Positions 6,565 through 55,990 of a stretch of 64,000 nt of DNA are shown here, piece by piece. A program made the translations under genes and the position numbers. Origin of the DNA: Fibrobacteria bacterium (GTDB lineage: Bacteria; Fibrobacterota; Fibrobacteria; UBA11236); the NCBI GenBank assembly GCA_039917895.1, contig JBDSIO010000219.1, positions 78 to 64,077 on the forward strand, written 5' to 3'. The notes beneath the pieces were generated by a model. That model searched no databases. It saw only the letters and a program-made list of their open reading frames with translations, and was not told the DNA's origin. Every line of letters begins with the position of its first letter. Positions within the stretch are counted from its first letter, which is position 1.

Positions 6565-6578
<14 letters not shown>

Positions 6579-21257: not shown

Positions 21258-21266
21258 CCCGTCTCC

Positions 21267-22397: not shown

Positions 22398-22400
22398 GCC

Positions 22401-30498: not shown

Positions 30499-33400
30499 TC
30501 ATCCATGGCCGTGGAAATTCCCGGAAGCGGACCAATGGGTCATCGCCTGATCGATGTCCGCGGCATCCACCCGCGTCCTACCCTCGCCCTTGGCGCGGCG
30601 TTCGATTTCCTTCATTACCATGGGACGGATGAAGTCCGGGATGCGGGAAGTGCGGGCCGTGGCCGCTTCGCTCCACTCCAGCTCCGGCGCCATCTTGGCG
30701 GAGCCATCACCCCAGCTCCCGTATTTTCCGTCCATGATCTCCAGATCCACCACGTCCGCTCCTCCCGCGCGCGCCCATTTCTCGACGCGGCAGCGCGTCA
30801 TGGTGCGCATGAAGCCTTCCGGTACCCGTTCCAGCCTTTGCAGGGCTTCGGGTTTCCAGGCCAGGGTCTTGAAAGCGGAAGACTTGGCCTGGGCGCGCTT
30901 TTCCGCGCTCAAGCGGACGAAATGCCCGGTGCCGCAATTGGCGCAGACCGTCGGTTTGGCGCCGTCCAGGATAATGCCGCACAGGTGGCATTCCCAAGGA
31001 GCGATCTCCGAGGCATCGGAGGCTTCCGGCGTTGCGCTTGCCTGGGCGGAAGTTCGGGCCGGATCCGCGGAAGGGGTCGCGGCATGCGGGTTGGCGCCTT
31101 GGCCATGGGCATGCGGATTGACGCCATGGGCGTGGATATGACCATGCGCCCCGGGGTCTCCTTGGCCCGATCCCGTCATGCTTGCATGCATCTTCTCCCG
31201 GGCCTTGCCCAGCCCCGCTTCCGCCACCTCCAAGGTGATTTCCTTCGTTCCGGAGTTCAGGGCGTGTTCCTCCACCATGTTTTTCGCGGCCTTGCGCATG
31301 AATCCATCCGGCACCCGTTCCAGGCGCTTGACGGCATCTTCCGTCCAGGCCGGTCCTCCGAAGGCGTCGGAGGATATCGCCCCGGGCGCCGCTTCGGCGG
31401 CGGATACGGGGGCTGCGGGAGCAAGATCCGCGGTAGTGGGAACGGCGGTTGGCGCAGCGCCGATGCCGGCGGCGCGCAATTCGGCCTCCACCATCTCCAG
31501 GGTCACGGCCGTGATACGTTGGGTCAATGCCCGTTTTTCCAGGCGGTTGCGGATCTGCGCCGTCACCGTCGCATCCCCGGACTTTTCCAACAGGGCCAGC
31601 GCGGATTTCTCCCACATCAATTGCCGATCCCCCAGAGTTTCCAAGGACTGCCCTTCGCTGACGATGGCGCTTTCCAGCAGCTTGAACATATGCCCGCCCA
31701 TGCCGCAGATAGGGCAGGACTGGGGCCGGGATCCATGATGGACGTGGCCGCAGGCCTGGCATTTGAAGCTCAAGGCGATCTTGTCGTGGGAATCGCGCTC
31801 CTTGCCCTCGTCCGTGTCCACGATGCCCATGCGGGCCAGCGCAGCGGGAGGCAGCAGGGTTTTCAGGGCCGCGTTCAGGATCGACTCCGTGACCACGGTA
31901 TGGCCTTCGGCCACGCAATAGTTCTGGATCGCTTTCATCGCCATATTCTGCGCCATGGCCGGCACCCGTTGCATGCGGGCCTTGGCCTCGGTGGTCCAAC
32001 TCACGGTCTCCTCGGCCTGGAATTCCACCGGAGGCTTGGCCTTGGAATCCACCACCAATATGTTGCAGGGCGCCAGGCGGCACAGGTTCTCGGTGTTGCC
32101 GCCGATGTCCATGTCCTCGTCGCTATGGAAGCCGATACGGCCCACCACCAGCAGCCAGGGCGGCTCAGCCTTGACGAGCTGCAGGATCTTTTCGAAGGGT
32201 TTGCCATCCAACAAACGGATCTCGATGGCTACGCCCGCCTCTTCGGCCAGCCGCTTGGCGATGTTCAGGTAGGACTGGTAGATCTTGGCCAGCCCCGAGT
32301 CGATGATGTCTTCATGTAGCTTCTCCTGCTCTTCGAACTTGAAGACCTTACGCGCCTTTTCGGTGAGGGTCTTGTTCAGGCTTTTGAACATGGCATAATG
32401 GAAATAGGGGTCGAAGGCGGATACCGCCAGTACTTTCTTGTCCAATGTCTTCGCGAGCCGCATGGCCCGCTGCAGGCCGCCCCAGCTTCGGATGCTGCCG
32501 TCCAGGCAGACTATGATGGTGTCGGAGACGTTCTCTTCCACGGACATGCGCGTAAGCAGGACATCGCGGCGGACGCGGCGCAGCATGCGCTCGGCGACGG
32601 TGCCCAGTTGGGAATTGCCCACGCGGCCGACGCCGTGCGCGCCCAGGGCCACGAGATCGTAATCGTTGGCCGCGATGTCCTCGGCCATGGCCTTCCAATT
32701 CTTGCCTTCCAGGCTCACGGCGGCGAACTCCAGGTTATCGGTCTTGCAAGCGCCGGACATGGCCTCCAAATACGAGTCCGTGATCAGCTCCAGCCCTTTG
32801 GTGATCAGGCTGTCGTGGATCTTGCGCTGGCGGTTAAGTTCCTTCTCCTTCTGGAACTCCTCCGGAAGTCCGCCTTCCATGGCGCGGAAACGGTTGTCGT
32901 GCATCTTAGCCGCATACACGTGGCTGCCGATCATGCGGGCGCCTTCGCGCTTGCCGATCAGCATGGCCGTGCGCATGGCCTCGTTGGAAGGGACGGAACT
33001 GTCCAGGCCCACGTAAATGCGCGAGTATTTCCAGTCTACCGCCTTGGGCGCGGCTTCCCCATCGGGATGGGAGCCGGGCGCCTGGAAGGAGGGAACCGTT
33101 GCAGGGACGGCCTCAGCGGCCTCGGCAGCTATGGCGGTAACGGTGGCCGGGGCGGCCGCGGCGGCTATTGCAGACGGGGCGGAAGGGGCGGTTGCCGCAG
33201 CCGCCTCTAGGGTCGCGGCAGTTGCGGTCCCGGCGTCCTTCGGCCGCTCCAAAACCTCGCGGGCCTCCTTCATCAGTTCCATGGTGATGCGCGTGAACCC
33301 GCGCCCCTTGGCGTATTTTTCGATCTGCTCGGTGATGAACTGGCGGATCATGCCCGGGGCCCGGTTGATGGATTCAATGGCCTCGGGCTCCCATTCCATA

Positions 33401-34152
33401 CCGCCTTTGGAAGGCAGCATCACGATCTTACCGTCCTTTTCCGGAACCCGGAAAGGAGTCTTGTCGTGGATGGATGAGATCCAGAATACATAGGCGTAGG
33501 GGAATTCGTGTTGGGCGATATGGAAGCTGTCGTACTCGAACATTACGCGCGCCAGCTTCACGAATTCATGTCGCGGATCTTCCGGACCGATCACCTCCAC
33601 GGCCGCGTTGACCTGGAAGCTGATGTAGTCCGGGGCGTTGCCGGTATAGTGCAAAGCCGCCAGGGGCGTGGCCGAGATATTCCTGAAGGTGGTCTTTTCG
33701 AAAATCTCGAGGCTGCTCAGCGATCGGTAGTCGACCTTCTCCCGATCGAAATAGAAGCTGGAAACGGCTTTCAGCCTTTCCTGCAACGATTCCTGCCAGG
33801 GACGGCCGCGGGTGCGTTCAATCGTCTCCTTGAACAGGTTGACGTAGGATTCCAGGTATTCCCGCTTGGGCAGGAAGCCCACGCCTTTGTTGCCGCAATT
33901 GAACGGAAAGGTCTGGCCGCGCGCCTGGGTGATCATCACGGGCAGGTGCGAAGTGAAAAAGGCGGGATTCCCCTTTCCCAACAGCTTGTCGTACATGGCG
34001 CGGCGGCCTTGTTCGATCCACTCTATGTACCGCTCCGGCAGGCTTTCCATCGGCAGGTCGACCGGTCCCTCGGCCAGTTCCACGCGAAGGCGATCTCCTG
34101 CGACTACGACCTTGGGCAGGCCCTGAAATTGTCTGGCCGTATTCTGCTGCAT
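30499..34152 (-). CDS. 1217-aa multidomain protein: N-terminal ~270-aa unknown domain, six PCP_red-like repeats (protochlorophyllide-reductase ChlB C-terminal-domain-like), tandem universal stress protein (Usp) domains, two rubredoxin-like zinc ribbons, and Ala-rich and His-rich linkers
   Basis: Repeats of the form (L/M)xW(T/E)xEAxxRLxR(V/I)PxFxRxxxxxxxExxAxxxGxxxITxExxxxA occur six times (e.g. VSWTTEAKARMQRVPAMAQNMAMKAIQNYCVAEGHTVVTESILNA; PAWTEDAVKRLERVPDGFMRKAAKNMVEEHALNSGTKEITLEVAEAG). The Usp motifs are IYVGLDSS...GAHGVGRVGNSQLGTVAERMLRR and IIVCLDGS.... The zinc ribbons are CQACGHVHHG...CPICG and CHLCG...CANCG. There is an HGHIHAHGVNPHAHG His-rich segment. Confidence 0.7.
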   Translation of the reverse strand: MQQNTARQFQGLPKVVVAGDRLRVELAEGPVDLPMESLPERYIEWIEQGRRAMYDKLLGKGNPAFFTSHLPVMITQARGQTFPFNCGNKGVGFLPKREYLESYVNLFKETIERTRGRPWQESLQERLKAVSSFYFDREKVDYRSLSSLEIFEKTTFRNISATPLAALHYTGNAPDYISFQVNAAVEVIGPEDPRHEFVKLARVMFEYDSFHIAQHEFPYAYVFWISSIHDKTPFRVPEKDGKIVMLPSKGGMEWEPEAIESINRAPGMIRQFITEQIEKYAKGRGFTRITMELMKEAREVLERPKDAGTATAATLEAAAATAPSAPSAIAAAAAPATVTAIAAEAAEAVPATVPSFQAPGSHPDGEAAPKAVDWKYSRIYVGLDSSVPSNEAMRTAMLIGKREGARMIGSHVYAAKMHDNRFRAMEGGLPEEFQKEKELNRQRKIHDSLITKGLELITDSYLEAMSGACKTDNLEFAAVSLEGKNWKAMAEDIAANDYDLVALGAHGVGRVGNSQLGTVAERMLRRVRRDVLLTRMSVEENVSDTIIVCLDGSIRSWGGLQRAMRLAKTLDKKVLAVSAFDPYFHYAMFKSLNKTLTEKARKVFKFEEQEKLHEDIIDSGLAKIYQSYLNIAKRLAEEAGVAIEIRLLDGKPFEKILQLVKAEPPWLLVVGRIGFHSDEDMDIGGNTENLCRLAPCNILVVDSKAKPPVEFQAEETVSWTTEAKARMQRVPAMAQNMAMKAIQNYCVAEGHTVVTESILNAALKTLLPPAALARMGIVDTDEGKERDSHDKIALSFKCQACGHVHHGSRPQSCPICGMGGHMFKLLESAIVSEGQSLETLGDRQLMWEKSALALLEKSGDATVTAQIRNRLEKRALTQRITAVTLEMVEAELRAAGIGAAPTAVPTTADLAPAAPVSAAEAAPGAISSDAFGGPAWTEDAVKRLERVPDGFMRKAAKNMVEEHALNSGTKEITLEVAEAGLGKAREKMHASMTGSGQGDPGAHGHIHAHGVNPHAHGQGANPHAATPSADPARTSAQASATPEASDASEIAPWECHLCGIILDGAKPTVCANCGTGHFVRLSAEKRAQAKSSAFKTLAWKPEALQRLERVPEGFMRTMTRCRVEKWARAGGADVVDLEIMDGKYGSWGDGSAKMAPELEWSEAATARTSRIPDFIRPMVMKEIERRAKGEGRTRVDAADIDQAMTHWSASGNFHGHG

Positions 34153-34203: not shown

Positions 34204-35493
34204 CTATTTGAAATGGAAGCCGAGTTCGGCTTCCCGTTCGCGCTTATGGCGCGTCATCAATTCCGGAGTTACGGGTACGCCTTCGGTCCGGGCCCGCGCC
34301 TCCAACTTCCGTTTCACCACCGGCCTCAGGAACAACGGCAGCTTGGACAGCCGTTCCCGCGCTTCGGGGGTCCATACGACTTCCGTGTCCCCGTCCGGTT
34401 TCCGCACCGGTATGATCGCGCCCCCGGCCGGCTCGTATTCACAGCTGGGGTCTTCCGCCATGAGATTTCCCTTGGCCAGGGATCGGGCCCGGCAGCCCCC
34501 GCACACCAGCTTGTATTCGCAACCGCCGCAACGGCCCTCCAGCAGGGCCGGATTGCGCATGGAGGCCAGCAGCACCGAGTCGTCCCAGATCTTCCAGAAA
34601 CCGTCCCGTCGTACATTCCCGGCGGAAAGTTCCATGTACGGGCAAGGGGTGATCTCCCCTTTGGGGGTGATGCGGCAATAATGGCTGCCCGCCAGGCAAC
34701 CGCCGCCGTCGTAACCTTCGGCGCGCGTGTAGGGCGATGCGGGATCGGCTTGATGGAGGATGCGCTTGAAATGGGGCGTGCAGCGCGTTTGCACCAGGAT
34801 GCCTTTGGCCGTGGGTTGGATGGCGGCGATTTCCTTGAGCGCGGCTTCATATTCCGCGGCCGAGAGATCCATGGAGCCTTCGCCCCGGCCCACGCAGACC
34901 AGGAAGAAGAAATTGATGATGGACGCGCCGAGTTCGCGGGCCATGTCCACGGCTTGCGCAATCTCGCTCCGGTTCCATCGCGTTATCGTGAAGTGGATCT
35001 GGGCATGCATGCCGGCCGCGCGGCAATGTTTTACCGCCTCGCAAGTCCTGGCGAAAGCGCCGGGCATGCCCCGGAAAGAATCGTGGGCGCCGGGACGGAT
35101 GGAGTCCAGGCTGATCCCCATGCCTTCCAGGCCCGCCGCCCTGAGTTCCTCCGCGCGCTTGCGGTTCACCAGCACCCCGTTCGTGCCCAGCACCATCCGC
35201 AGACCCGCCTCCACTCCGGCCTTGACGAACCCGTCCAGGCCCGGATGCAACAGGGGTTCGCCTCCGGTGAGCACGATGATGGTACCCGGCGCCCGCGCGC
35301 CGATGTCGCGGAACAGGGATGCGACCTCCTCATCGGCCATCTCCCCGTCCATGACCGACGCCCGTTGGGTGGCGTCCATATAACAATGGGCGCAATTCAG
35401 GTTGCAACGCCGGGTCAGGTTTACGGCCACCAGGTACGGTTCAAACTCCCGCTCCCCGCGCCGTTCTTCCTTTTTTCCCGTTTCCATCGGCAA
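34204..35493 (-). CDS. Radical SAM / SPASM-domain enzyme (AhbC/NirJ/PqqE-like) with a C-terminal PCP_red-like domain
   Basis: CNLNCAHCY (CxxxCxxC). The SPASM Cys-rich region is GGGCLAGSHYCRITPKGEITPCPYM...CGGCEYKLVCGGCRARS. The C-terminal VVWTPEARERLSKLPLFLRPVVKRKLEARARTEGVPVTPE matches the repeat family in the adjacent 1217-aa protein. Confidence 0.75.
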   Translation of the reverse strand: MPMETGKKEERRGEREFEPYLVAVNLTRRCNLNCAHCYMDATQRASVMDGEMADEEVASLFRDIGARAPGTIIVLTGGEPLLHPGLDGFVKAGVEAGLRMVLGTNGVLVNRKRAEELRAAGLEGMGISLDSIRPGAHDSFRGMPGAFARTCEAVKHCRAAGMHAQIHFTITRWNRSEIAQAVDMARELGASIINFFFLVCVGRGEGSMDLSAAEYEAALKEIAAIQPTAKGILVQTRCTPHFKRILHQADPASPYTRAEGYDGGGCLAGSHYCRITPKGEITPCPYMELSAGNVRRDGFWKIWDDSVLLASMRNPALLEGRCGGCEYKLVCGGCRARSLAKGNLMAEDPSCEYEPAGGAIIPVRKPDGDTEVVWTPEARERLSKLPLFLRPVVKRKLEARARTEGVPVTPELMTRHKREREAELGFHFK

Positions 35494-35524
35494 CCCCGCA
35501 CCCTGTCCCGCTATCGCGGGCGGT

Positions 35525-36241
35525 TTAATACTCGAAGGCGACTTTCGCGTCCTTGCCCGCTTCCACCTTCACCTGCACGGTTTTCGCGCCCAGGGCCTCA
35601 TGCCAGATCTTCAACGTATAGGTTCCCGCGGGCACGTCGGCCAATATGAACTCCCCGGCCGGTCCGGTCACCGCCGCGTAGGGATGCGGCAAGGCCCAGA
35701 TGTATCCCTGCATGAAATCATGGGCATCGCACTCCACCGAGATCAGGCCTTCCTTGCGGAGGATTTTGGTGTTTTCCACGACCTGGCCCTTCTTAGGCAG
35801 CGCCATGTTGATCAGGTTCTTCTTGGCCGCGCCGTCCACCAGGTAGAAGTGCGAATTGTGGAGCATGTCGTCGTCGTTGCGCACTTTCAGGGTCGCGCCC
35901 ACCGGGGCCACAAGTACGTGGGGAGTGAACTTGCAATTGGTGTTGTCGTAGAAGATTTCGCCTGCCGCGGCTTTCTTGCCTTCCGCAATCTTGTCGATCA
36001 TCACCACGGCGAATTGGAGGCCGCCGCCCGCTCCCGTCACGTATTTTTGGGCCGCGATCTTGGCGCCGCACTGCTCCGGATTCTTGCTGACCACTTTCAT
36101 CTCGTCCGCCGGGGCCTTCCCTTTGATCTTGATGGCCCCGCTGATGCTGCCGCCGTTGGCGACGGCGATCTCCTTGTATTGCGCCGAGGCCGCCACGGCT
36201 CCGGCCAGCATGAACGCGCATAAGGTATTGATGGTTTTCAT
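35525..36241 (-). CDS. Periplasmic cupredoxin-like (type 1 copper) protein
   Basis: Signal peptide MKTINTLCAFMLAGAVAASA (RBS AACGGAGGA before the ATG at 36241). Candidate copper ligands are H in MLHNSHF and the C-x2-H-x2-M motif (VECDAHDFMQG), as in amicyanin/pseudoazurin. Confidence 0.5.
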   Translation of the reverse strand: MKTINTLCAFMLAGAVAASAQYKEIAVANGGSISGAIKIKGKAPADEMKVVSKNPEQCGAKIAAQKYVTGAGGGLQFAVVMIDKIAEGKKAAAGEIFYDNTNCKFTPHVLVAPVGATLKVRNDDDMLHNSHFYLVDGAAKKNLINMALPKKGQVVENTKILRKEGLISVECDAHDFMQGYIWALPHPYAAVTGPAGEFILADVPAGTYTLKIWHEALGAKTVQVKVEAGKDAKVAFEY

Positions 36242-36281
36242 TTCGATCCTCCGTTTTGGGATGGGTTTTCCATGGCTGGGC

Positions 36282-37394
36282 TCAGAAGAAGACATGCAGC
36301 CTTCCCACGATCTGGTTCTGGTTGTCCGCCGTGCTCTGAGGTATCCAATCGTTTTTCCGGTAATACAATCCCACCTGCAGGAATTGCATGATGAAGGGTT
36401 CGACGCCTACCACCACGCGGGTCTGATTGCTTTGCGCCTGGGGGATTGCCGTATTGCGCCAGAAGGACTCGTAGGTGACCTTGAAATTAAGTCCCTGCAT
36501 GGGCAGGAAGTCGACCTCGGTGTAGTCCTCGACCTTGTCGATGCCCTCATCCTTGGTGTAGTCGCGCTCCCCCAGGATGGTGAACATGCCCAAGGTGGTG
36601 CCGGCGAAAACGCCGTAAGATCCTTTGGTTTCCTTGAATTCCTTGGTAAGTTCCTTACTGTAGGAACCGCCCAGCCTGACGGTGCGCAGCACGGGCACTT
36701 CCCTGAACACGAAGGAGCCGACGCTCATCCATTTGGTCTGGGTGATGGAACTGACCAGGGACAGCGGCCCGGGTTCGAATCCCATTTCGTATGCCAGGGC
36801 CGTGGAACTGTAAGTGTAGCCGGTGAAGTTGCGCACGAAGGCATCATCGTCCATGAGCCGGTATCCGTATGGAAGCAGCATCTGGCCGAATTTCAAGTAG
36901 CTGTTGGCGGGCAGGGAAATCATGCTCCAGAGTTCGCGGAAGCCGCCTGCGGACATGTCCTTGTCGTAGTAAAGCTTCAACCGATCCTTGATCAGATCCA
37001 TCTCCACGTATAGGTTCTTCTCCTTGAAGGTGCCGGCGTTCCAGTTCCCCTCCACCATGCGCGCCGAATCCCCGGGGTTGGCGGGTTTGGTGGTGAACTG
37101 GCGGAGATACGCCTGTTCGATGCGGAAATTCGCACCCAGGGAGACGGAGTTGTTCAGCTTCGGATCGAAGGAATTGAGGTTCTTCTGCGCGAGTGTGGAA
37201 GCCACCAGCAGCTTGTATTGCGTATACACCTCTCCGAACTCGGTCCGCTTGCCGCCCCCCGTCCGGTTTACGTGGCATTGGCTGCATTTGAATCCCGTTC
37301 GGACGGCGATATAGGGCTCGGCGGAAACCAATCCGGTGGCCAGCAGGAACACGATCGCGATAGGTTTCCAGGGCATTGACGTTGACCGTTGCAT
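36282..37394 (-). CDS. Fused monoheme cytochrome c / outer-membrane beta-barrel (Cyc2-like cytochrome-porin)
   Basis: Signal peptide. A single CSQCH motif within about 15 residues of the predicted mature N-terminus. The remaining ~330 aa form alternating amphipathic beta-strands ending ...GRLHVFF (C-terminal Phe). This architecture matches Cyc2-type iron oxidases. Confidence 0.45.
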   Translation of the reverse strand: MQRSTSMPWKPIAIVFLLATGLVSAEPYIAVRTGFKCSQCHVNRTGGGKRTEFGEVYTQYKLLVASTLAQKNLNSFDPKLNNSVSLGANFRIEQAYLRQFTTKPANPGDSARMVEGNWNAGTFKEKNLYVEMDLIKDRLKLYYDKDMSAGGFRELWSMISLPANSYLKFGQMLLPYGYRLMDDDAFVRNFTGYTYSSTALAYEMGFEPGPLSLVSSITQTKWMSVGSFVFREVPVLRTVRLGGSYSKELTKEFKETKGSYGVFAGTTLGMFTILGERDYTKDEGIDKVEDYTEVDFLPMQGLNFKVTYESFWRNTAIPQAQSNQTRVVVGVEPFIMQFLQVGLYYRKNDWIPQSTADNQNQIVGRLHVFF

Positions 37395-37402
37395 ATCCGC
37401 GC

Positions 37403-38134
37403 CTAGTTCCTTCCCGTGATCCAGGTTTTAATGGTTTGGATGTCCTCGTCGGAGAGGGGCGCCGCCGCTTCGGCCGGCATCCTTACGCCGTAGGGCGGGG
37501 TCGCCTTGAAGATCTTCAGGAACAGGTAGCTGCTGTCCGGTACCCCCGGCAGCACCCGCATCATATTGATGTTTTTTACCGTCAGCATCTCGATCGACTT
37601 GATGTTGACCAGGCTGTCCCACGCCGCGCCCGATTCCAGAGTCAGCCTGGTTTGCATAAATCCGGTGCCGCCGGGCTTGATGTGGCATTTCTCGCAATGG
37701 GTCTTGAAGATGGGCAGCACGTTGGCCGTGAAAAAAGCCCGGTCCAGGCACTCCACCGGCTTGGGGAGCCTGGAACAATCGATGCAGCGCGAGGGAGGAT
37801 TGGGGAGTAGGCAAGAGTCCACTGCCACGCAACGCGCGGGAGGATTGGGCAAAGCGCAGGAATCGGGCACAGCGCAGCGCGCGGGGGGATTGGGGAGCAG
37901 GCAAGAATCCACCGCCAGGCAACGCGCGGGAGGATTGGGCAGAGCGCAGGAATCGACGACGCAGCCGGCTGAGGCGGGATTCGCGATGCAGGGATTCGGC
38001 TTGATGAGAGCTCCGCCGGCGGTCAGACCCACGCCGTCTCCGGCTTTCATGCAGGCGATGAACAGGGCGGGAATAACGATGGCAGCCGCCAGCAGTCGGG
38101 ATTTCCCGCGCAGCCCTTGTTGCAAGCGGTTCAT
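37403..38134 (-). CDS. Lipoprotein c-type cytochrome with five tandem Cys-containing 14-15-aa repeats
   Basis: Lipobox (ALFIAC). Repeats DSC(A/L)LPNPPARC(L/V/A)AV occur five times, followed by a class I cytochrome c domain with CEKCH. It overlaps the downstream cytochrome gene (ATGA-type coupling at 38131-38134). Confidence 0.6.
   Translation of the reverse strand: MNRLQQGLRGKSRLLAAAIVIPALFIACMKAGDGVGLTAGGALIKPNPCIANPASAGCVVDSCALPNPPARCLAVDSCLLPNPPARCAVPDSCALPNPPARCVAVDSCLLPNPPSRCIDCSRLPKPVECLDRAFFTANVLPIFKTHCEKCHIKPGGTGFMQTRLTLESGAAWDSLVNIKSIEMLTVKNINMMRVLPGVPDSSYLFLKIFKATPPYGVRMPAEAAAPLSDEDIQTIKTWITGRN
37790..37975. repeat. Coding tandem repeat (~42-45 nt unit, 5 copies) inside the lipoprotein cytochrome gene
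   Basis: Repeated cgcgcgggaggattgggcaaagcgcaggaatc-like units are visible on the + strand and encode the Cys-Pro-rich peptide repeats. Confidence 0.6.
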
Positions 38135-39153
38135 GGCGTCACCTCCGTGTCTTTCGTGAACAGGATGAAAAAGGGATTCGGCTTACGGATCAGGGAGCGG
38201 ATGTAATGGACCAAGGCCCATTTCCTTTTTTCCCCAAGGGCGTTCCGCTGTTCGGCCGGCATTTTTTGCAACGCTGCTTCCGTCGGTTGGGTGAGCAGCC
38301 AAGCCTGCAACTGATCGATTTCGGCGGCCGGATAGGCTTCCTTGTACTTGACCGGATCCACCGTAGCGTCTCCGGAAATGAGGAAACCGTCGAGAGCGTA
38401 GGCGGGCATGGGCGTGCCGTTGAGGCCGGTGGTGAAGGTGCGGTACAGGGTCCCGGCGTCGTTCCCCGCCTTGTAGCGATACGCGGTCAGGTTCCAGGGG
38501 AGGATTTTGCGGCCCCAGTCATCGTCCAGGGTCTTACCGGATTTCCCATCGCCTTTGCCGGAGCCGCCGTGGCAGGCCCAGCATTCCATCAGCATGTACA
38601 CCAGCTTGCCCTCCTTTACCGCTTGCGGAGTACTCTCGGGAACCGCGGGAACCTCCATGGGGGAGGGCGCGCCTTCCTTGAAATCCGGAGAAAAAGTCTT
38701 GAGGAAGGCGACCACGTCCAGGCGCTCCTGCAGGGTAAGAGTCGTCCCCCAGGCCGGCATCTGCGTTCCCGGAACCCCTTTTTCCACGATGGCCAGCAGA
38801 TCCGCATCGGTGGGCAGCTCTCCGCTCGGGGTCGAACGGAATTTGAACATGCCCGCGGTGAAATCGCGCGGCCGCGGATTCAGGTATTGGCCCGCGGCGC
38901 TCCGGCCGTCGCCGTTTTCGCCATGGCAGGCCGCGCAGGATTTGGAGTAGACGGCTTCGCCCCGGGACAGGGAAGGCGATGACAAAGCCGCCTGGGCGGG
39001 CCCGGAGGCGGCGCTTGCCCCGTGTAATGCCACGATGGCGGCAAAACCGATCGCCCGCGAAAGACGGCCGGACAGGTTGAGGGGATAGGCATTCAAGATG
39101 TACCTCCCGTTTCTCTCATTCATGGGTGGATACCACATCAAATTCCATACCAT
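38131..39153 (-). CDS. Periplasmic diheme c-type cytochrome
   Basis: Signal peptide. CAACH and CWACH motifs. Alternative starts at 39138/39123. Confidence 0.65.
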   Translation of the reverse strand: MVWNLMWYPPMNERNGRYILNAYPLNLSGRLSRAIGFAAIVALHGASAASGPAQAALSSPSLSRGEAVYSKSCAACHGENGDGRSAAGQYLNPRPRDFTAGMFKFRSTPSGELPTDADLLAIVEKGVPGTQMPAWGTTLTLQERLDVVAFLKTFSPDFKEGAPSPMEVPAVPESTPQAVKEGKLVYMLMECWACHGGSGKGDGKSGKTLDDDWGRKILPWNLTAYRYKAGNDAGTLYRTFTTGLNGTPMPAYALDGFLISGDATVDPVKYKEAYPAAEIDQLQAWLLTQPTEAALQKMPAEQRNALGEKRKWALVHYIRSLIRKPNPFFILFTKDTEVTP

Positions 39154-39312
39154 ATTTCCTGGTGTTTATTGCGGAACCGGGAAGCTTCGGTTTAAGGATG
39201 GTTGGGCTCATAAGCTTCAATCTATCCGCGGCCGTTGCTTCGCGGATTACGCGAAAAATGCCAGCTTGGCATGCATTCCGGCCCCATTTTGGTCCTTATG
39301 GCACGCATTGGG

Positions 39313-40845
39313 CTAACGCTTGGATGCGGCGGCGCGCCTGCGCAGGAACCAGATGAGACCGGCTTCCAGCACGATGGCCAGGGCGGCCCGCTTCGAAGCC
39401 GGGGCCAGGGGATTCTCCGCGCGGGCCGGCTTCAGGTACAAGGTAAACCAGGAGGTTACCCCACGGGAGCTGCCCGTCTCGCGCGACAATCCGTCCCAGA
39501 CGGAAAAAGCGATGGGCGCGAAGCCTCCGGGCTCGAAGGCATACCGTCCAGGCTCGGACCGTTTGCGCGTGAACACGGCCCACCATTCCCCGTCCGCATA
39601 ACCCGCGTCGACGCTGATCGTTCCGGGAATCCGCGCCAGGTTTCCCGCGCCCTTAGCCGCATAAACCTCACCCGTATCCGTGCCGAGATCGCGGAACCAG
39701 AGCTCGGCGGGATTCCGCTTGTCGCCGGAAAGGAAGTAGGGTTTACCCGCCCCTTCGATGGCCTTGCCGGGAATCTGAATGGCGATGGCATCGGAAAATA
39801 CCGCCCCGGAATCGCTGCCGGCCGCGTCAATGGGACTATTGGCGCCTTTGCGTTGCGCGCTCATATCGTGCCAGGAGACCAGCACGGAAACGTAGTCGCT
39901 ATCGTAAACGGCCCTCACCTCCACGGCGTTGGCCGCTGGAAAGAAATCCCTGCGCGCTTCGATCACCTGGCCGACCACGGGGAACAAGGCCGGCTTCGCA
40001 CGGGTGAAGGCGTCTCGCCCCGGCTTGGATCCCAATTCGCCGGGAACGGCCTCGGCCGTCACCAATGAAGCGTATCCGGGTTCGTCGCCGGGACTCAGCG
40101 AATGGATGTAGTCGACCAAGGCCCAGCGATCCTTTTCCTCGATGGAGGCCGTGTAGCTGGGCATTGGCGTGCCGTTGAGCCCGGTCATGATGGTGCGGAA
40201 GATATCCTCGCGCCGGGGCCCGCCGCGGAAGGTCCAACGCCGCGTCAGATCCGCGGGCCGGATGGCGTGGCCCCAATCGTCGTTCAGGGTCGGTGCGGAC
40301 TCCCCGTCGCCGCGGCCCAGCTTGCCATGGCAGTCCATGCATTTGTTCTCGACGAAGAGTTTGCTGCCCCGCTCCGCCGATTCCTTGCTGAAAGCCGGAG
40401 GCTTAACAGCGGCGATGGGTTTGGGGTGGTTGGCGGTATCGGCGAAATCGGAATTGAAGCCCTTGATGAAGGCGACGAGATCGCCAAGCTCTTCTTCGGA
40501 AAATTCCGGCCAGGCCGGCATACCCGTATAGGGCATGCCGCTCCGGATGATGGATTTCAGATCCGCATCGGTGGGAGATTCCCCGCTTTCCGTGGTGCGG
40601 ATTTTGAACGATCCCGAGGTGAAATCGCGCGGCAGCGGCCGGAAGAACTCCGCCCCGTCCCCCTTGCCCTCGCCGCCCGTACCATGGCATTGGGAGCACT
40701 TGTCCAGGTAGATGGCCTTGCCCGCCGCGGCCCGGGCATCCGTAGCCGGCGCGTCCGCCGCGCGCGCAATGGGAGCGTAGGAAAGCGCGGCCGAGATCAC
40801 ACCCGCGAGGGCGAGGGTAGCGGAAAGCCTGCGATGGGTATTCAT
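39313..40845 (-). CDS. Membrane-anchored diheme cytochrome c fused to an EB_dh-like heme-b domain (NxrC-like gamma-type subunit)
   Basis: Signal peptide. CSQCH and CMDCH motifs. The C-terminal half has EB_dh-like segments (VRAVYDSDYVSVLVSWHD..., AIAIQIPGK, PYFLSGDKRNPAELWFRDLG, FSVWDGLSRETGSSRGVTSWFTLYL). A C-terminal TM helix AALAIVLEAGLIWFLRRR follows. Confidence 0.55.
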   Translation of the reverse strand: MNTHRRLSATLALAGVISAALSYAPIARAADAPATDARAAAGKAIYLDKCSQCHGTGGEGKGDGAEFFRPLPRDFTSGSFKIRTTESGESPTDADLKSIIRSGMPYTGMPAWPEFSEEELGDLVAFIKGFNSDFADTANHPKPIAAVKPPAFSKESAERGSKLFVENKCMDCHGKLGRGDGESAPTLNDDWGHAIRPADLTRRWTFRGGPRREDIFRTIMTGLNGTPMPSYTASIEEKDRWALVDYIHSLSPGDEPGYASLVTAEAVPGELGSKPGRDAFTRAKPALFPVVGQVIEARRDFFPAANAVEVRAVYDSDYVSVLVSWHDMSAQRKGANSPIDAAGSDSGAVFSDAIAIQIPGKAIEGAGKPYFLSGDKRNPAELWFRDLGTDTGEVYAAKGAGNLARIPGTISVDAGYADGEWWAVFTRKRSEPGRYAFEPGGFAPIAFSVWDGLSRETGSSRGVTSWFTLYLKPARAENPLAPASKRAALAIVLEAGLIWFLRRRAAASKR

Positions 40846-41654
40846 TCCGCGCGCTCCTGGGCCCTGGGTTTCTGCCCCGTGAACCGGTAGAGGAATAGGA
40901 TGACGTCCCAGATTTCATCCTCGGAAAGGAATTTCTCCCAGGCCGGCATCGCCGAGGCCCAAGGAGTAGACTCTTCGGGAAGGCCCGGACCTCCCTTCGC
41001 GATGCGCCAGAAGAGGTAGGACTCCTGCAACATGGCGATGGTGGTGGGATCCTGGAAATTGGCGGGCAGGGGATCGAAGCCGTGGGAATGGATGCCGTCC
41101 CCTTTCAGGTTGTCCCCGTGGCAGAACACGCAGTTCCGGTAATACACCTTGCGGCCGTCCGCCACGTGCGCGTCGAAGGCCGCCGCATCCTTGTCCTCCA
41201 GCTCCCGAAAGGGATTCGACGCCGTGAGCAGGTTGATCTTCTTGCCCTTGAAATCCATCTCCCCCGGCGGGGCGGGATGGATGGTGCGCGCATTTGCCGG
41301 GGCCGCCACCTCCCGCGAGGCGTCTCGGTAGGCCGCGTAGCCGGCCAGCAAAGGGATGATCGCGGCCAAGGTCCAGAGCAACGGGGCGAAACGCCGTTCC
41401 GTAAAGAAGCGCAGCAGGGCAAGCGAAGCCGTGCGCAAGCGTCCCGAATCCGCCGAGAGATAGATGAGCAGCACGGCCGTGAGCACGGCCAGGTATAGGC
41501 CGATGATGGACGAAGGCAGCGGCGGCGTCAACGCGTAATTCAAGACCAGGAAGAATCCCGACCACCAGGCCCCCATCCAGACGAGGATGGGCGGCTTCAG
41601 GAAGCGCAGTCCTATCAGCACCAGCAGAACGGGCCCGAGTATCAGCAGGTTCAC
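40842..41654 (-). CDS. Polytopic membrane protein with a C-terminal monoheme cytochrome c domain
   Basis: Four predicted TM helices followed by CVFCH. Its start overlaps the upstream gene's stop and its stop overlaps the downstream gene's start. Confidence 0.6.
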   Translation of the reverse strand: MNLLILGPVLLVLIGLRFLKPPILVWMGAWWSGFFLVLNYALTPPLPSSIIGLYLAVLTAVLLIYLSADSGRLRTASLALLRFFTERRFAPLLWTLAAIIPLLAGYAAYRDASREVAAPANARTIHPAPPGEMDFKGKKINLLTASNPFRELEDKDAAAFDAHVADGRKVYYRNCVFCHGDNLKGDGIHSHGFDPLPANFQDPTTIAMLQESYLFWRIAKGGPGLPEESTPWASAMPAWEKFLSEDEIWDVILFLYRFTGQKPRAQERAE

Positions 41655-42469
41655 CGCTTCCCCCTTTGCGCGGAAAGGTACGCGACCATGGCCTTGATGT
41701 CCCCGGCGGAGGTCTTGTCGTAGAATCCCGATGCCTTGAGCGTATTGGCCATCAGGCCCTTGGGATATCCCTTGGGCGTTACCGCATCCGGATCCATGAT
41801 GGATTCGGAGATCAGGCTGGGTTTGAGACGCTTGCCGACATCGAAGAGACTGGGGCCCACCAGCTTGCCGGGCTGATCCAGCCTATGGCAACCGGCGCAT
41901 CCGTTAACGGTCAACAACTCCTTGGCGGTCCTGGGGACCGTGGTTGCCGCGGAAGCGGCCGGGGCGGCCGGACCATCATTTGCGACCGTACCGGAGGGCG
42001 AAAACGCGTGACGGGTCAGCATAGTGACGTTCGGCGTACCGCCCAGGCTTTGCAAGTAGGCGATCACGGCCATGATTTCCCCGTCGGAAAGATTGATGGG
42101 CGGCCCATGGATGGGGGGCATGCCGGGGCTGTAGCCTTCGACGATGAAAGCGTTGGGTTCGTAGATGGACTGGGCCAGGTACTCCACATCCGACATTCCC
42201 GGCCTTTGCTTGCCGGCGCGGGCGCCGATGCCGCCCAGATCCGGGAACCGCCCGGGCTTGTCCGATCCGATGGTATGGCAGCCCAGGCAGGTGCCCTTAC
42301 CGCCCACGATTTCCTGGCCGGCCTGGACCAGGTCATCCGTGGTCATGTCCGCACGTACCTCCAGATCCTTGGGAGGGTGGACCTCCTTCTGCGGGACCAT
42401 CTGCCCGATGTAGGCGTAGAACGCCGTGACCAGCACGGTGAAGAGGATGATCTTCAATACGTTGATCAT
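41651..42469 (-). CDS. Membrane-anchored diheme c-type cytochrome
   Basis: This is the real 272-aa gene embedded at the C-terminal end of the artifactual 695-aa track ORF. It starts MINVLKIILFTVLVTAFYAY (TM helix), then CLGCH and CAGCH. Its ATG at 42469 overlaps the upstream gene's TGA (ATGA). Confidence 0.6.
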   Translation of the reverse strand: MINVLKIILFTVLVTAFYAYIGQMVPQKEVHPPKDLEVRADMTTDDLVQAGQEIVGGKGTCLGCHTIGSDKPGRFPDLGGIGARAGKQRPGMSDVEYLAQSIYEPNAFIVEGYSPGMPPIHGPPINLSDGEIMAVIAYLQSLGGTPNVTMLTRHAFSPSGTVANDGPAAPAASAATTVPRTAKELLTVNGCAGCHRLDQPGKLVGPSLFDVGKRLKPSLISESIMDPDAVTPKGYPKGLMANTLKASGFYDKTSAGDIKAMVAYLSAQRGKR

Positions 42470-44520
42470 GGCGCCGCCTCCTTCCCCGTGTCCCAATCCT
42501 TGCGGCCCGAAAGGCTGGTGAGCCAGAAGACGATGGAGATGAAGGCGAAGAAGATCAGCACCGTCACCGACACCACGATGGAGGCGAACCCCAGGGTGGG
42601 CGTGAAGGCGTCGACGGATTCGTCCCGCATCACCCCGTAGACGTGCCAATGCTGGCGGATGCCGGAGCGGACGTAGCCCATCAGCCCCATCAGCCAGGTG
42701 AAGGTGATGGCGATGAGGATCAGCGCGTATTGCGAGCGCATCGGCATTTTCCCCCAGCGGATTTCGCCCGTGGTGCGCGCGTTGCGGAACATGAAAATGT
42801 CGATGACGGTCACGGAGATCATGGCCGTGAGCACCGAAGCGACCTGGGGGACGGAAAGCCGGATGCGCACCTTGGCTTCCACGAAATAGCCCAGCACGCC
42901 CAGGGCGATCACAAAGAGCGCGGTGAGGGCGAAAATCAGGAACTGGGCCAGGTTGCCTTTGGCGGCCCAAGGCGCGATGGATCGCTTGTTGCCCCGGCGG
43001 TAGAGCAGGAAGCTGACATAGGTGGTCAGGATCAGGATGTTCACGGCGGTGTTCTTGGCCGACATCACTCCCAGCACGCCCAGGGCGGGATGATGCGCGC
43101 CGCCCATCTTGCGCGCCTCCTCCACGGTAGCCACCAGGGAATGCGGCGTCGCCCACACCAGGAAGCACACCGTGATCGAGCCCAGCAGCCATTTGATGAA
43201 CTTGCGGAAGCGTTCCGCCCCTTCGATGCGTTCCATGCCCAGCCACAGGTAATAGTTGGCGGCCAGGAACAGGGTGCCGATCAACACCGCCTGGATGATG
43301 AAAAGCCAGGAGAAAGCGCCGCCCATCAGGGTCATGCCCATGTTCTGGGAATAGGCGTAGATCTCCTTGCCCAGCCAATACCCCGCGAAAGGCAGCGGGA
43401 GCAGGGCGCTGATGGCGATGAAGTTTCCGATGTACCCCATCCAGTCGTAATGGGCCCGTTCCTCGTCCGTCTTGGCCCCCATGAACTTGAAAGCGCCGTA
43501 AGCTCCCGCGATGGATCCGCCGAAGGCGATATTGGCGATCAGACGATGCACGTTGATGGGCATCCAGGTGAAGTTGTGCACCGCCTGCCAGCGGTTGACC
43601 AGTTCGCCCGACTGGGTGATTCCATTGGGGGAATTCATGAAGGTGAGCCACGCATCCGCGATGCAGATGATGGCGACCCCGACCAGGTTGAGGCAGACGC
43701 CGAGGGCCAGGTGCACGCGCGGATGGAACTTTCCCCAACCGTAATAGTAGGCGTACATGAAGATGGCCTCGGCGAAGAACAGGGCTACATAAGGCATGAA
43801 GGTCCAGCTGAAGATGGAGACCAGGTAGGCGGTCAGTTTGGGATACAGAATCAGTAGCATAAAGGTGAGCATCGCGCCCAGGGAGGCCGTGAACGAAAAG
43901 GACGTGGACAGCAGCTTGGTGAATTCATGGGCGAGATGATCGTATTTGCGATCCTTGGTGCGGTACCCGATGTATTCGATGGTCAAGGCGAACATGGGCA
44001 CCGCCAGCACGAAGGCGGCGAACATCAAATGCAGCTGGGCCACGATCCAGATGGCCACGCGGCTGCCGATGACCGGGAACCTGCGGTAAGCGGGTTCGGA
44101 GCCGGGTTTGGTATTCGCGTAAACCTTGGGCGGCTGCGCAACCGGCGCGCCTGGAGCATGGGCCTTGAGTATCCAGGTCACGATGGTAGTGATGTCCTCG
44201 ATGGAAAGCGCGGGATGGGCCGGCATGGGCACGGCGCCCCAGGCCCCCGCGCCTCCGGCATGCACCTTTTCCGCCAATCGGGCGATGTCGGCCGTACCGT
44301 ATTTCGCCGCGATTTCCTTGAAGGCGGGTCCCACCACCTTATGGTCCGGCTGATGGCACACGAGGCAATCGCTCTGCTTCATCAATTCCTGGGCATTCTG
44401 GGCCTTCTGGGCCTTCACGGCCTCCTCACCCCCTGCCGGCGCGGCTCCGAGACACAGCAACGCCAACAGCGCCGCCAACCGCCAAGCAAAGCGTTTCCGG
44501 CGGATGATTCCCTGATCCAT
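42466..44520 (-). CDS. Cytochrome c551/c552-like domain fused to a cytochrome bd-like (CydA-related) polytopic membrane protein; putative novel terminal oxidase or quinol-interacting module
   Basis: 684 aa. Signal peptide. CLVCHQPDHKVVGPAFKEIAAKYG...IVTWIL is a class I cytochrome c domain. At least 12 TM helices follow, similar to the cytochrome bd subunit I family. It is the first gene of the array. Confidence 0.65.
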   Translation of the reverse strand: MDQGIIRRKRFAWRLAALLALLCLGAAPAGGEEAVKAQKAQNAQELMKQSDCLVCHQPDHKVVGPAFKEIAAKYGTADIARLAEKVHAGGAGAWGAVPMPAHPALSIEDITTIVTWILKAHAPGAPVAQPPKVYANTKPGSEPAYRRFPVIGSRVAIWIVAQLHLMFAAFVLAVPMFALTIEYIGYRTKDRKYDHLAHEFTKLLSTSFSFTASLGAMLTFMLLILYPKLTAYLVSIFSWTFMPYVALFFAEAIFMYAYYYGWGKFHPRVHLALGVCLNLVGVAIICIADAWLTFMNSPNGITQSGELVNRWQAVHNFTWMPINVHRLIANIAFGGSIAGAYGAFKFMGAKTDEERAHYDWMGYIGNFIAISALLPLPFAGYWLGKEIYAYSQNMGMTLMGGAFSWLFIIQAVLIGTLFLAANYYLWLGMERIEGAERFRKFIKWLLGSITVCFLVWATPHSLVATVEEARKMGGAHHPALGVLGVMSAKNTAVNILILTTYVSFLLYRRGNKRSIAPWAAKGNLAQFLIFALTALFVIALGVLGYFVEAKVRIRLSVPQVASVLTAMISVTVIDIFMFRNARTTGEIRWGKMPMRSQYALILIAITFTWLMGLMGYVRSGIRQHWHVYGVMRDESVDAFTPTLGFASIVVSVTVLIFFAFISIVFWLTSLSGRKDWDTGKEAAP

Positions 44521-44865
44521 GCTACCCCTCGATGCCTATGGGTTTTCCCGACCCAGGGAACCCCGCCCCACCGGCCGAACCCGCGCCTTGCGTTCAGAGT
44601 TGAGGCAAAGCAATTCGCGCACCATTCCGTGTAGGGGATCCACGTGCCGCCCAAAAACGGGATTCAGGGCGATGCTGGCAGCATGTCGCCGCAACCAGTC
44701 GGTCCTAGGTCGCGGAACCCTGTCAGAATGGCAACCCAGCTGCAAATTCGCGCATGCCCCTCACGGCAATCCCGGCTCGGGGACGGTTCGGAAGGACTGG
44801 CAAAACCCGCGCGCAAATTGTCAGGAGAAAATCGATGCTACCGCGATCCCGCCCTTGATACCTTT

Positions 44866-44920
44866 ATTGCAAGGCGGACCAAGTTGCAAGGCGGACCAAG
44901 TTGCAGGACCAAGTTGCAAA
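44866..44920. repeat. Direct repeat array, four copies of (A)AGTTGCA(A) / GGACCAAGTTGCA, in the divergent intergenic region
   Basis: The sequence reads tTTGCAAGGCGGACCAAGTTGCAAGGCGGACCAAGTTGCAGGACCAAGTTGCAAAACG. The TTGCA half-sites are spaced 17, 17 and 13 bp. The array lies upstream of nnrS and on the far side of the cyt c-bd-like operon promoter region. Confidence 0.5.
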
Positions 44921-46175
44921 ACGAACAACACAGGACGAACGGACGAAAATGATTCAGGCCCTCGCTTCTAAAACCGCCAAACCATCCGCCATCGATTGGC
45001 AAGGCCTCCGTCAGGAGCCCTACCGCCTGCTGTTCCCACTCGGCATCTCGCTCGCCGCCGTCGGTATCGGCCTATGGATCCCGTTCTACCTGTGGCCGGA
45101 AGCCGTCGGCTTTCCCGGCCAGGCGCATGCGGTCATCCTGATCCAGGGCTTTCTGTTGTGCTTCATCTTCGGCTTCCTGGGAACCATGATGCCGAAGGTG
45201 CTGGGTGTGCGTCCGCTCAACACCCCGCAATTCGCCATCTTCCCCATCGCCCTCGTCGGCCTCGCCGTCGCCTCCTTGGCCGGCGCCCCGCGCCTGGCCC
45301 AGATCCTGCATCTCTGCTTGCTAGCCAATTTCGCCGTTTTCATCGCCCTGCGGTTCCCGCGCCGAACTTCGAATCCGCCACCGGCATTCGCGTTCATCGC
45401 CGTGGCCATGCTCGCCGACATCGCGGGCACCCTCCTAAAGTTGGCGGCGCTCTCCGATCTGCTCGGGGCCACCGCCTCGCGGGCCGGCGCGCTCCTGCAA
45501 TACCAGGCCTTTCCCTTGCTTCTCATCCTGGGCGTGGGAGGCTTCCTGCTGCCGAAGCTGTTCGCCAACGGCCCCATCGATCCGGCCTCCTTGCGCGACT
45601 CCGCGGCTTCAGGACCGGGACGCCCGCTGGCGCTCGCGGCGCTCTTCCTGATCAGCTTCGGCGTGGAAATCCTTTCCCTGCATCGCGGGTACGGAGACGC
45701 CGGCTTGCGCGCGGCTTACGGCCTGCGGGCCGCGGTGTGGATCTGGTTCATCCTCCGCGACATCCGGATCCATAAAGTCCCCGGCAAGCTGCCGCTCTAT
45801 CTCTTCGGAGCCCGCGTTTCGCTCATCGTGATCGGAGCAGGACTGCTGCTGCCCGTTTTCCGCCCCGCCTATTTGCTGGCCTGGGAGCACGTGATCTTCC
45901 TTTCCGGATTCCTGCGGCTCACCCTGTCCATCGCTTCGCGCGTGGTTGCGGCCCATTCCGGCCGCCTGGAGATCCTGGGCCTGCACCGCAAGAAGGTGCG
46001 CGTCTACGGGATGCTGATCGTTTTTGCCATGTTCACGCGCATCGCATCCGACTTCTGGCCCAAAAGCCATTGGATGCATATCGCCATCGCCGCCGCCGTG
46101 GCCATGACCGCCATCGCGATCTGGTCCGGCATCTTCTTTCCCTTGTTGCGGGTGCATCCCGGCGGGAAGGTCTGA
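44901..46175 (+). CDS. nnrS: NnrS-family heme-copper membrane protein (NO-stress associated)
   Basis: About 400-aa polytopic membrane protein with NnrS-like conserved His positions. The alternative start at 44949 is plausible. Confidence 0.7.
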   Translation: MQDQVAKRTTQDERTKMIQALASKTAKPSAIDWQGLRQEPYRLLFPLGISLAAVGIGLWIPFYLWPEAVGFPGQAHAVILIQGFLLCFIFGFLGTMMPKVLGVRPLNTPQFAIFPIALVGLAVASLAGAPRLAQILHLCLLANFAVFIALRFPRRTSNPPPAFAFIAVAMLADIAGTLLKLAALSDLLGATASRAGALLQYQAFPLLLILGVGGFLLPKLFANGPIDPASLRDSAASGPGRPLALAALFLISFGVEILSLHRGYGDAGLRAAYGLRAAVWIWFILRDIRIHKVPGKLPLYLFGARVSLIVIGAGLLLPVFRPAYLLAWEHVIFLSGFLRLTLSIASRVVAAHSGRLEILGLHRKKVRVYGMLIVFAMFTRIASDFWPKSHWMHIAIAAAVAMTAIAIWSGIFFPLLRVHPGGKV

Positions 46176-52865: not shown

Positions 52866-52870
52866 GGCCC

Positions 52871-53950: not shown

Positions 53951-53973
53951 GATTGTCCCTTAATCCTTTTCCT

Positions 53974-55989: not shown

Positions 55990-55990
55990 T

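Follow-up and report, generated by a model that had tools for sequence, protein, structure and literature searches.

How electrons pass from nitrite oxidoreductase (NXR) to the membrane is an open question in both nitrification and anammox, and the usual candidates for the link are membrane-anchored c-haem proteins, the "alternative NxrC" of the Nitrospira, Nitrospina and Kuenenia literature (PMC3578206, PMC6606698). An alternative NxrC (alt_NxrC) has been described as containing a signal peptide, two haem-c motifs, an EB_dh domain and one C-terminal transmembrane helix (PMC6606698, Table 2). In Nitrospira, the gene for alt_NxrC_2 is clustered with genes for membrane-bound cytochromes c and a bd-like CydA homologue (PMC6606698). 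The nxr cluster of Kuenenia comprises kustd1712 (cydA-like), kustd1711 (dihaem), kustd1710 (monohaem) and kustd1709 (dihaem) (PMC6423088), and an OR-N2 operon with an "ebdC-homologous subunit" has been described in the supplement of Murali et al. The present analysis concerns a gene of this kind, whose product is referred to below as the target (510 amino acids, aa). It is located in a 64,000-nucleotide stretch of DNA from a Fibrobacteria bacterium (contig JBDSIO010000219.1, positions 78 to 64,077), hereafter called the window.

The target shares with alt_NxrC the signal peptide, the two CxxCH motifs, the EB_dh domain and the single C-terminal transmembrane helix, and its gene is clustered, in the same arrangement, with genes for a bd-like CydA homologue and for two cytochromes c bound to the membrane. 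It is homologous to alt_NxrC_2 of Nitrospira moscoviensis (NITMOv2_3640), alt_NxrC of Nitrospina gracilis and kustd1709 of Kuenenia stuttgartiensis, the comparison that had been recommended in the original prediction. Orthology of the gene group with kustd1712–1709 is indicated by gene order and by the match of the 272-aa neighbour of the target to the structure of Kustd1711. The results suggest that the target is probably the periplasmic cytochrome c subunit of an OR-N2-type "cytochrome bd-like" membrane complex, with its EB_dh-like domain serving as a scaffold. A role as a dedicated NXR anchor is unlikely. Proteins of this kind were already known as alt_NxrC or EbdC-like OR-N2 subunits; the present analysis adds their tight linkage to the bd-like module rather than to NXR, the clade-specific loss of haem-b ligands and the extra genes of the Fibrobacterota version.

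The open reading frame (ORF) of the target is real: it starts with ATG, with CAGGAG located 5′ of it, and an identical NCBI entry is annotated as "c-type cytochrome [Fibrobacteria bacterium]". Inspection of the amino acid sequence revealed a hydrophobic segment (aa 11–27) followed by ARA-A. The two predicted haem-c motifs, CSQCH (C50–H54) and CMDCH (C169–H173), were found as claimed, each within a Pfam cytochrome c domain (aa 37–127 and 157–251). Each domain pairs its CxxCH with a distal Met (C50/C53/H54 with Met109, C169/C172/H173 with Met228), and both the motifs and the two Met residues are invariant in one set of 87 and another of 120 homologues. The following region matches EB_dh (PF09459) with 45.7 bits, above the cut-off of 33.3, while the score against TIGR03477 (52.5 bits) is below the NCBIfam cut-off of 169.85. 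Alignment of this C-terminal domain with 48 canonical NxrC proteins by hhalign gave a probability of 99.7% (E 3e-25).

The chain ends with 26 residues made up of a hydrophobic helix and the tail RRRAAASKR. In the AlphaFold2 (AF2) model this helix spans aa 480–509, with a hydrophobic core (aa 485–501) preceding the RRR. The helix and the basic tail are kept in 120/120 of the closest homologues and, following the positive-inside rule, the bulk of the target is therefore placed in the periplasm. The C-terminal membrane anchor of the original prediction is thus upheld, and the topology check that it called for gave one helix with a basic tail. Position 494, in the middle of the helix, is E or Q in 85 of 120 close homologues, which suggests a specific intramembrane contact.

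The AF2 model of the target, built on 45 homologues (predicted local distance difference test 85.7, predicted template modelling score 0.81), is helical in the cytochrome domains (to residue 250), continues as a beta-sandwich (residues 261–471) and closes with the long terminal helix. The top Foldseek match in the PDB was Kustc0457 (6h5l_B; template modelling (TM) score 0.86), followed by EbdC (2ivf_C; TM-score 0.76, E 8.5e-15), Kuenenia NxrC (7b04_C; TM-score 0.63) and then haem-free CBM9 modules. The relationship to Kustc0457 is also evident at the sequence level (target aa 41–251; E 6e-42, 38% identity). Taken together, the Pfam, fold and profile matches show that the domain architecture had been described correctly. 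The dihaem protein Kustc0457 (6H5L chain B) resembles the N-terminal half of the target in being built of two c-type domains with His/Met ligation that serve electron transfer. However, it is a free-standing soluble partner of the octahaem, hydroxylamine oxidoreductase-like nitrite reductase Kustc0458, whereas the target joins such a module to an EB_dh-like domain and a membrane anchor.

The beta-sandwich fold is common to the target, NxrC (7B04 chain C) and EbdC (2IVF chain C), and the motifs FSDAxAxQFP, GDxxxPVxxW, GEWxV and VWxG..E.G are shared with these proteins. Canonical NxrC and EbdC are soluble proteins without c-haems that are encoded in alpha-beta-gamma operons and bind haem b through Met and Lys (PMC8387239). 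The target differs from them in its c-haems, its transmembrane anchor, its operon, which contains bd-like and cytochrome c genes and no gene for a molybdopterin alpha or Fe-S beta subunit, and in the lack of both ligands.

Met155 and Lys305 are the haem-b ligands of Kuenenia NxrC, "as in EBDH" (PMC8387239); by alignment position, these residues equal Met108 and Lys201 of the 2ivf_C chain. The column of Met155 falls on Ser373 of the target in HMMER alignments with both 7b04_C and 2ivf_C, and hhalign gives the same column. Ser373 directly precedes the invariant Gly374-Asp375. The column of Lys305 falls on Ser460 (HMMER alignment with 7b04_C, and spacing from the invariant Trp466) or on Arg461 (HMMER alignment with 2ivf_C, and hhalign with the NxrC of the window, in which this region is longer by one residue), and neither position holds a Lys. 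As a control, 48 NxrC proteins from the loci of the closest relatives of the window NxrA were examined: Met is present in 48/48 and Lys in 47/48. Both ligands are also present in the NxrC encoded by the NXR-like operon of the window; this soluble EB_dh gamma subunit was found as originally described, in an operon with the order ABCD. Loss of the ligand residues had been named in the original prediction as grounds for rejecting it and, given Ser373 and Ser460/Arg461, this loss has therefore occurred in the target. Of the proposed "EB_dh-like heme-b domain", the fold is confirmed and the haem b is not; judged from the alignments, the domain most likely no longer carries it.

The distribution of these residues differs between clades. 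The 120 closest homologues have F (103), S (10), L (3), Y (2), A (1) or M (1) at the Met position and most often K (63), R (31), A (9), T (5) or S (4) at the Lys position; position 328 (motif WHDM) is Met in 119/120. In 120 relatives of the Nitrospirota/Methylomirabilota type, Met is found at the Met position in 101 and Lys at the Lys position in 78, and residue 328 is Pro or Arg. This latter clade thus mostly keeps the Met/Lys pair and lacks Met328 and the mid-helix Glu, whereas the target has Ser/Ser, Met328 and Glu494. Among 75 full-length representatives of clusters at 50% identity, only 17 have Met and 24 Lys at the ligand positions, and 12 have Met328; in the wider family (87 sequences), Met328 occurs in 62, and many members lack Met at both 328 and 373. 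On the evidence of these alignments, only a minority of the family has the canonical ligand pair. It is retained for the most part in the Nitrospirota-type clade, to which the literature examples from nitrite oxidisers belong, and has been lost in the large Fibrobacterota/Bacteroidota/Acidobacteriota clade. The two clades are also anticorrelated in target aa 326–328 (39862–39870) and aa 373: WHDM occurs with Phe/Ser in the Fibrobacterota/Bacteroidota/Acidobacteriota, and WDD[P/R] with Met in the Nitrospirota. The anticorrelation of Met328 and Met373 could reflect either a ligand swap or unrelated clade signatures. For annotation, the labels "DMSO (dimethyl sulphoxide) reductase type II haem b subunit" and NxrC are unsafe for such genes, and the family can be divided, in a testable manner, into forms able and unable to ligate haem b.

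The target gene is the last of four minus-strand genes, which encode a CydA-like protein, a dihaem cytochrome c, a monohaem cytochrome c with four transmembrane segments, and the target. Start and stop codons overlap (ATGA or ATG-stop) at each of the three junctions (40845/40842, 41654/41651 and 42469/42466), and the four genes are translationally coupled. The CydA-like protein combines Cyt_bd_oxida_I (Pfam, 1.2e-20) with Cytochrom_C and shows about 13 hydrophobic segments in a hydropathy plot. The 272-aa dihaem cytochrome c matches the Kustd1711 structure (7zs0_A) with E 3e-32, the N-terminal helix included. The longest ORF call for this gene (41651–43738, TTG start) is misleading; translation most likely begins at an ATG at 42469, which a GGAGG precedes. 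The claim that cytochromes and a bd-like protein adjoin the target therefore proved accurate, and Pfam, hydropathy and synteny agree in showing the clustering with two membrane-bound cytochromes c and a CydA homologue that is typical of alt_NxrC; the homologue in such clusters is described as having roughly 14 transmembrane segments and no quinol site. By homology, the target is the predicted "ebdC-homologous subunit" of an OR-N2-type operon. A promoter and terminator scan of positions 35000–45200 gave nothing above shuffle expectation and does not define the operon boundaries.

The conservation of this four-gene module was examined by tblastn with the window proteins in five homologue contigs from a metagenome protein index and in 80 loci from a collection of GTDB contigs with one genome per species. 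The order bd-like protein, dihaem cytochrome c, transmembrane cytochrome c, target is kept in 83 of 86 loci, and the other three end at a contig end. In nearly every locus, the gene directly upstream of the target homologue encodes the monohaem cytochrome c. Module loci were found in Fibrobacterota, Calditrichota, Bacteroidota/Rhodothermales, Latescibacterota, Myxococcota and Acidobacteriota, and further in Verrucomicrobiota, Gemmatimonadota, Thermodesulfobacteriota, Nitrospirota and Methylomirabilota, many of these phyla being non-nitrite-oxidising; the Nitrospirota homologues of two loci (L070 and L072) are 36–40% identical to the target and show the same synteny. In the one-genome-per-species collection, at least 592 stretches encode a relative of the target. 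The primary placement of the family is thus with the OR-N2 bd-like complexes, of which it forms a fixed subunit and which are found in hundreds of species without a nearby NXR gene.

A homologue of NxrA was detected within the 10-kb flanks of only one of the 86 module loci (L010, Latescibacterota). The reciprocal set comprised the loci of the 80 closest relatives of the window NxrA in metagenome contigs (56–84% identical), all with the order nxrA-B-C-D. None of these 80 loci, 15 of which have the full 10 kb on both sides, contains a bd-like, transmembrane cytochrome c, target-type or PCP_red marker gene within 10 kb. A conserved linkage between NXR and the module is thus disfavoured by synteny in both directions. 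In the window itself, 13.4 kb lie between the NXR-like operon and the module, and this interval contains genes for a porin and a CRP/FNR regulator and one more opposite-strand gene.

In L010, the gamma subunit of the NXR-like operon (5179–6750, plus strand) is a 523-aa fusion of a dihaem cytochrome c and EB_dh, which keeps MGD and GQK and has no C-terminal transmembrane helix. A complete bd-like module directly follows the gamma gene and contains a separate 518-aa transmembrane-anchored subunit with Phe at the Met position. Since L010 encodes two different EB_dh proteins, the paralogues serving NXR and the bd-like module are distinct. In the literature searched, the complexes of kustd1709 and alt_NxrC are represented only by transcript and protein tables and by the Kustd1711 structure, no association of any alt_NxrC member with NxrAB (by co-purification or complexome analysis) was found, and the bd-like enzyme is not discussed in the paper on O2 in Scalindua.

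In the favoured reading, the target would be exported by the Sec pathway and its CcoP/Kustc0457-like module loaded with two His/Met c-haems. The single C-terminal helix would tether the protein with its basic tail in the cytoplasm, and Glu494 probably packs on the CydA-like or the four-helix subunit. Because their start and stop codons overlap, the target, the CydA-like protein, the Kustd1711-like dihaem cytochrome c and the four-helix monohaem cytochrome c would be made in fixed stoichiometry. The likely role of the target is to accept electrons from carriers in the periplasm and relay them along the c-haems to the b-haems of the CydA-like subunit, while its EbdC/NxrC-fold domain would act as a structural or docking domain. 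Candidate carriers are the amicyanin-like copper protein and the paralogous soluble dihaem cytochrome c encoded nearby, and possibly a Cyc2-like outer-membrane cytochrome. The haems of Kustd1711, a homologue of the neighbouring dihaem cytochrome c, have been measured at about +350 mV (PMC11791136), which fits a high-potential chain.

In its arrangement the target may be likened to CcoP of cbb3 oxidase, a membrane-anchored dihaem cytochrome c that feeds periplasmic electrons to a catalytic membrane subunit. The matches to CcoP are weak (TIGR00782, 57 bits against a cut-off of 179.95, so that the target is not a member; 9g83_v, E 1e-6). Moreover, CcoP has its anchor at the N-terminus and works with a haem-copper oxidase, whereas the target has a C-terminal anchor and belongs to a module with a CydA-like protein. 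We infer the formation of the complex, the direction of electron flow, the substrate (O2 being the published guess) and the absence of haem b. The analysis mainly brings clarification; it does not demonstrate a new mechanism.

Several observations weigh against this reading. Gene order is the sole basis for proposing a complex; the haem-pocket motifs show strong sequence conservation; the alignment column of the Lys could be off by one residue; Met328, nearly invariant in a clade without the canonical Met, could be a swapped ligand; and an NXR-like operon does lie 13.4 kb away, with NXR found beside the module in Kuenenia, Nitrospina and L010. The last point, together with the homology to the alt_NxrC candidates, speaks for an alternative NXR gamma subunit or anchor, in which the EB_dh-like domain would dock onto NxrB, either beside soluble NxrC or as its replacement, and tether NxrAB(C), with the c-haems linking NXR to the bd-like complex. 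The EB_dh fold binds NxrB in the solved NXR structure, a Kuenenia-type NxrA is encoded in the same window, and in L010 an NXR-like operon directly abuts the module. Nevertheless, with both haem-b ligands missing, the FS4-to-haem-b step of NXR would have no counterpart in the target. The NXR-like operon has a gamma subunit of its own with both ligands, the two units are separated in the window by two opposite-strand genes, and the operon of L010 uses the other paralogue, in which Met and Lys are kept and the transmembrane helix is lacking. Combined with the rarity of NXR near the module and the absence of the module near NxrA relatives, these findings make the anchor role suggested in the original prediction improbable. 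A functional link between the target and NXR by indirect electron exchange through soluble carriers is possible.

If the EB_dh-like domain used non-canonical ligands, for example Met328, to bind haem or a different planar cofactor, the target would be a c-c-b three-haem wire, as is probable for its Nitrospirota-type relatives. The near-invariance of Met328 among the closest homologues and its anticorrelation with the canonical Met (Pro/Arg328 with Met373 in the Nitrospirota clade, Met328 with Phe/Ser373 in that of the target) would fit such a swap, as would the conserved pocket motifs SDAxAxQxP, KPYFLxGD and FSVWDG...E.G and the Lys at position 460 in 63 of 120 close homologues. The target itself has Ser460, so that the sixth ligand would be missing even if Met328 ligated. 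In addition, His326 and Met328 are located on the same strand face, and Met328 is far from general in the wider family (62/87 sequences, 12/75 cluster representatives), many members of which lack Met at both sites. Haem-free beta-sandwiches of the CBM9/DOMON type also match the model (Foldseek E 1e-6 to 1e-7), which indicates that the fold exists without haem, although they have no detectable sequence relationship to the target, which is clearly of EB_dh descent. Cofactor binding through non-canonical ligands is considered unlikely. Another proposal is that the module is not an O2 reductase and serves N-oxide metabolism or electron uptake from extracellular or metal sources, with the target as a periplasmic hub. 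Its support is purely contextual: a denitrification-type island (NXR/Nar-like enzyme, norCB-like pair, nosZ/L/D, NnrS, ScdA and CRP/FNR, with no nirS or nirK in the window), NnrS divergent beside the module in Fibrobacterota loci, a gene string shared with a Cyc2-like cytochrome-porin and a blue copper protein, retention of the module by the strict anaerobe Kuenenia, and a NirJ/AhbD-like radical SAM gene with the module in most loci examined. In the published view, however, OR-N enzymes are O2 reductases, most module carriers belong to aerobic or facultative lineages, and a nir gene may sit elsewhere in a genome of which the window is only 64 kb; this proposal likewise has a low probability. 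Least probable of all is a trans-envelope path in the Fibrobacterota islands, as yet undescribed, leading from the Cyc2-like protein through the copper protein, the dihaem cytochrome c and the target as hub to the CydA-like reductase. In this scheme the cofactor of the reductase would be tailored by the radical SAM and PCP_red proteins, the EB_dh pocket would be repurposed (Met328) for a new cofactor or for NXR docking, and an N-oxide would be reduced in place of O2.

Table 1. Coordinates of the target, its domains and other features of the 64-kb window.
Feature	Position	Strand	Remarks
Target gene (510 aa)	39313..40845	-	signal peptide, dihaem c, EbdC/NxrC-fold domain, C-terminal transmembrane anchor
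Sec-type signal peptide, target aa 1–29	40759..40845	-	predicted cleavage between ...PIARA and AD
Kustc0457/CcoP-like dihaem cytochrome c module, target aa 37–253	40087..40737	-	6h5l_B match
EB_dh (EbdC/NxrC)-fold beta-sandwich, target aa 256–471	39433..40080	-	canonical haem-b ligands absent
C-terminal transmembrane helix, target aa 485–501	39343..39393	-	mid-helix Glu494, predicted cytoplasmic tail RRRAAASKR
Subunit of 270 aa, four predicted transmembrane segments and one haem c	40842..41654	-	directly upstream of target
Dihaem cytochrome c, 272 aa, N-terminal transmembrane anchor, Kustd1711 homologue	41651..42469	-	7zs0_A match
CydA-like, cytochrome bd subunit-I-like protein, 684 aa	42466..44520	-	N-terminal fused cytochrome c, OR-N-type "bd-like oxidase"
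NnrS-family membrane protein	44901..46175	+	divergent from module; conserved in Fibrobacterota-type loci
Soluble dihaem cytochrome c, 340 aa, Kustc0457-like	38131..39153	-	paralogue of target N-terminal half
Lipoprotein-like protein, 243 aa	37403..38134	-	Cys-rich repeats and C-terminal CEKCH cytochrome-c-like domain
Cyc2-like fused monohaem cytochrome and 16-strand outer-membrane porin, 370 aa	36282..37394	-	AF2, fold search
Periplasmic amicyanin-like protein, 256 aa	35525..36295	-	type-1 copper site H..C-x2-H-x2-M and CarboxypepD_reg beta-sandwich
Radical SAM/SPASM protein, NirJ2/AhbD-related, C-terminal PCP_red	34204..35493	-	290 bits, cut-off 500
Protein of 1217 aa, five PCP_red (BchB C-terminal) repeats, two Usp, rubredoxin-like domain	30499..34152	-	
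NXR/Nar-like ABCD operon, Kuenenia/Nitrospira-type, periplasmic	19715-25880	-	own gamma subunit 20397-21257
cbb3 oxidase genes	2000-6578		
nosZ/L/D	51504-56040		
ScdA/YtfE-like	59377-60096		
Dihaem c and 442-aa COX1-family pair resembling norCB	60984-63025		

The genes located downstream of the target (Table 1) vary in their association with the module. Over 231 aa, the soluble dihaem cytochrome c of 340 aa and the N-terminal half of the target share 42% identity, and a separate copy of this accessory gene is present only in five Fibrobacterota-type loci (L001, L004, L006, L007 and L044). The Cyc2-like gene is confined to the module versions of the same five loci. The adjacent 243-aa protein contains a repeat (37784–37957) of 3.8 tandem 45-nucleotide (15-aa) units, DSC[AL]LPNPPARC.

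According to published criteria, Cyc2 has a signal peptide, a single N-terminal CxxCH, a 16-strand porin, a length of at least 365 aa and AxPxFAR[QK][TY] located 5 aa upstream of the haem motif (PMC8406198). The 370-aa protein of the window has a signal peptide and one CSQCH (aa 37–41), preceded by an invariant AEPYIAVRTGFK. In its AF2 model, 16 strands form a beta-barrel that ends in ...HVFF, and a PDB search gave fold matches of the OprP/OmpU type. In architecture the protein is of the Cyc2 type. The Cyc2 signature is partial (AEPYIAVRT, 3 aa upstream of the CxxCH), and no PxL is found downstream. The family has 366 members, all annotated as "hypothetical", and is covered by no Pfam or NCBIfam model.

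The 256-aa protein matches amicyanin weakly (E 0.006), yet the four type-1 copper ligands are in register (MLHNSHF ... ECDAHDFM), and homologues of it directly follow the target homologue in several phyla (e.g. L010, L011, L013, L070 and L072). The radical SAM and PCP_red-repeat genes accompany the module in most loci examined, across many phyla. NirJ2 and AhbD are enzymes of haem d1 and haem b synthesis, and the presence of these genes hints at a tetrapyrrole-modifying or -handling function tied to the bd-like complex. A uspA-like gene (kustd1706) is also present in the nxr cluster of Kuenenia.

The window as a whole represents a denitrification-type respiratory island, in which no nirS or nirK was detected across the 64 kb; a CRP/FNR regulator and a class II ribonucleotide reductase are also encoded. 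Its NxrA (1159 aa) carries a twin-arginine translocation (Tat) signal and matches the NxrA of 7b04 over its full length with 927 bits. Assignment to another type II dimethyl sulphoxide reductase (Ser, Clr, Pcr or Ebd) was rejected, the next-best match, a molybdopterin subunit of that family, scoring 165 bits. The NXR-like enzyme, encoded here in a Fibrobacterota metagenome-assembled genome that is not that of a known nitrite oxidiser, may be a nitrite oxidase or a nitrate reductase, both directions being conceivable. The genes moeA and moaA adjoin the operon, and relatives of this NxrA at 56–84% identity are common in metagenomes (455 stretches).

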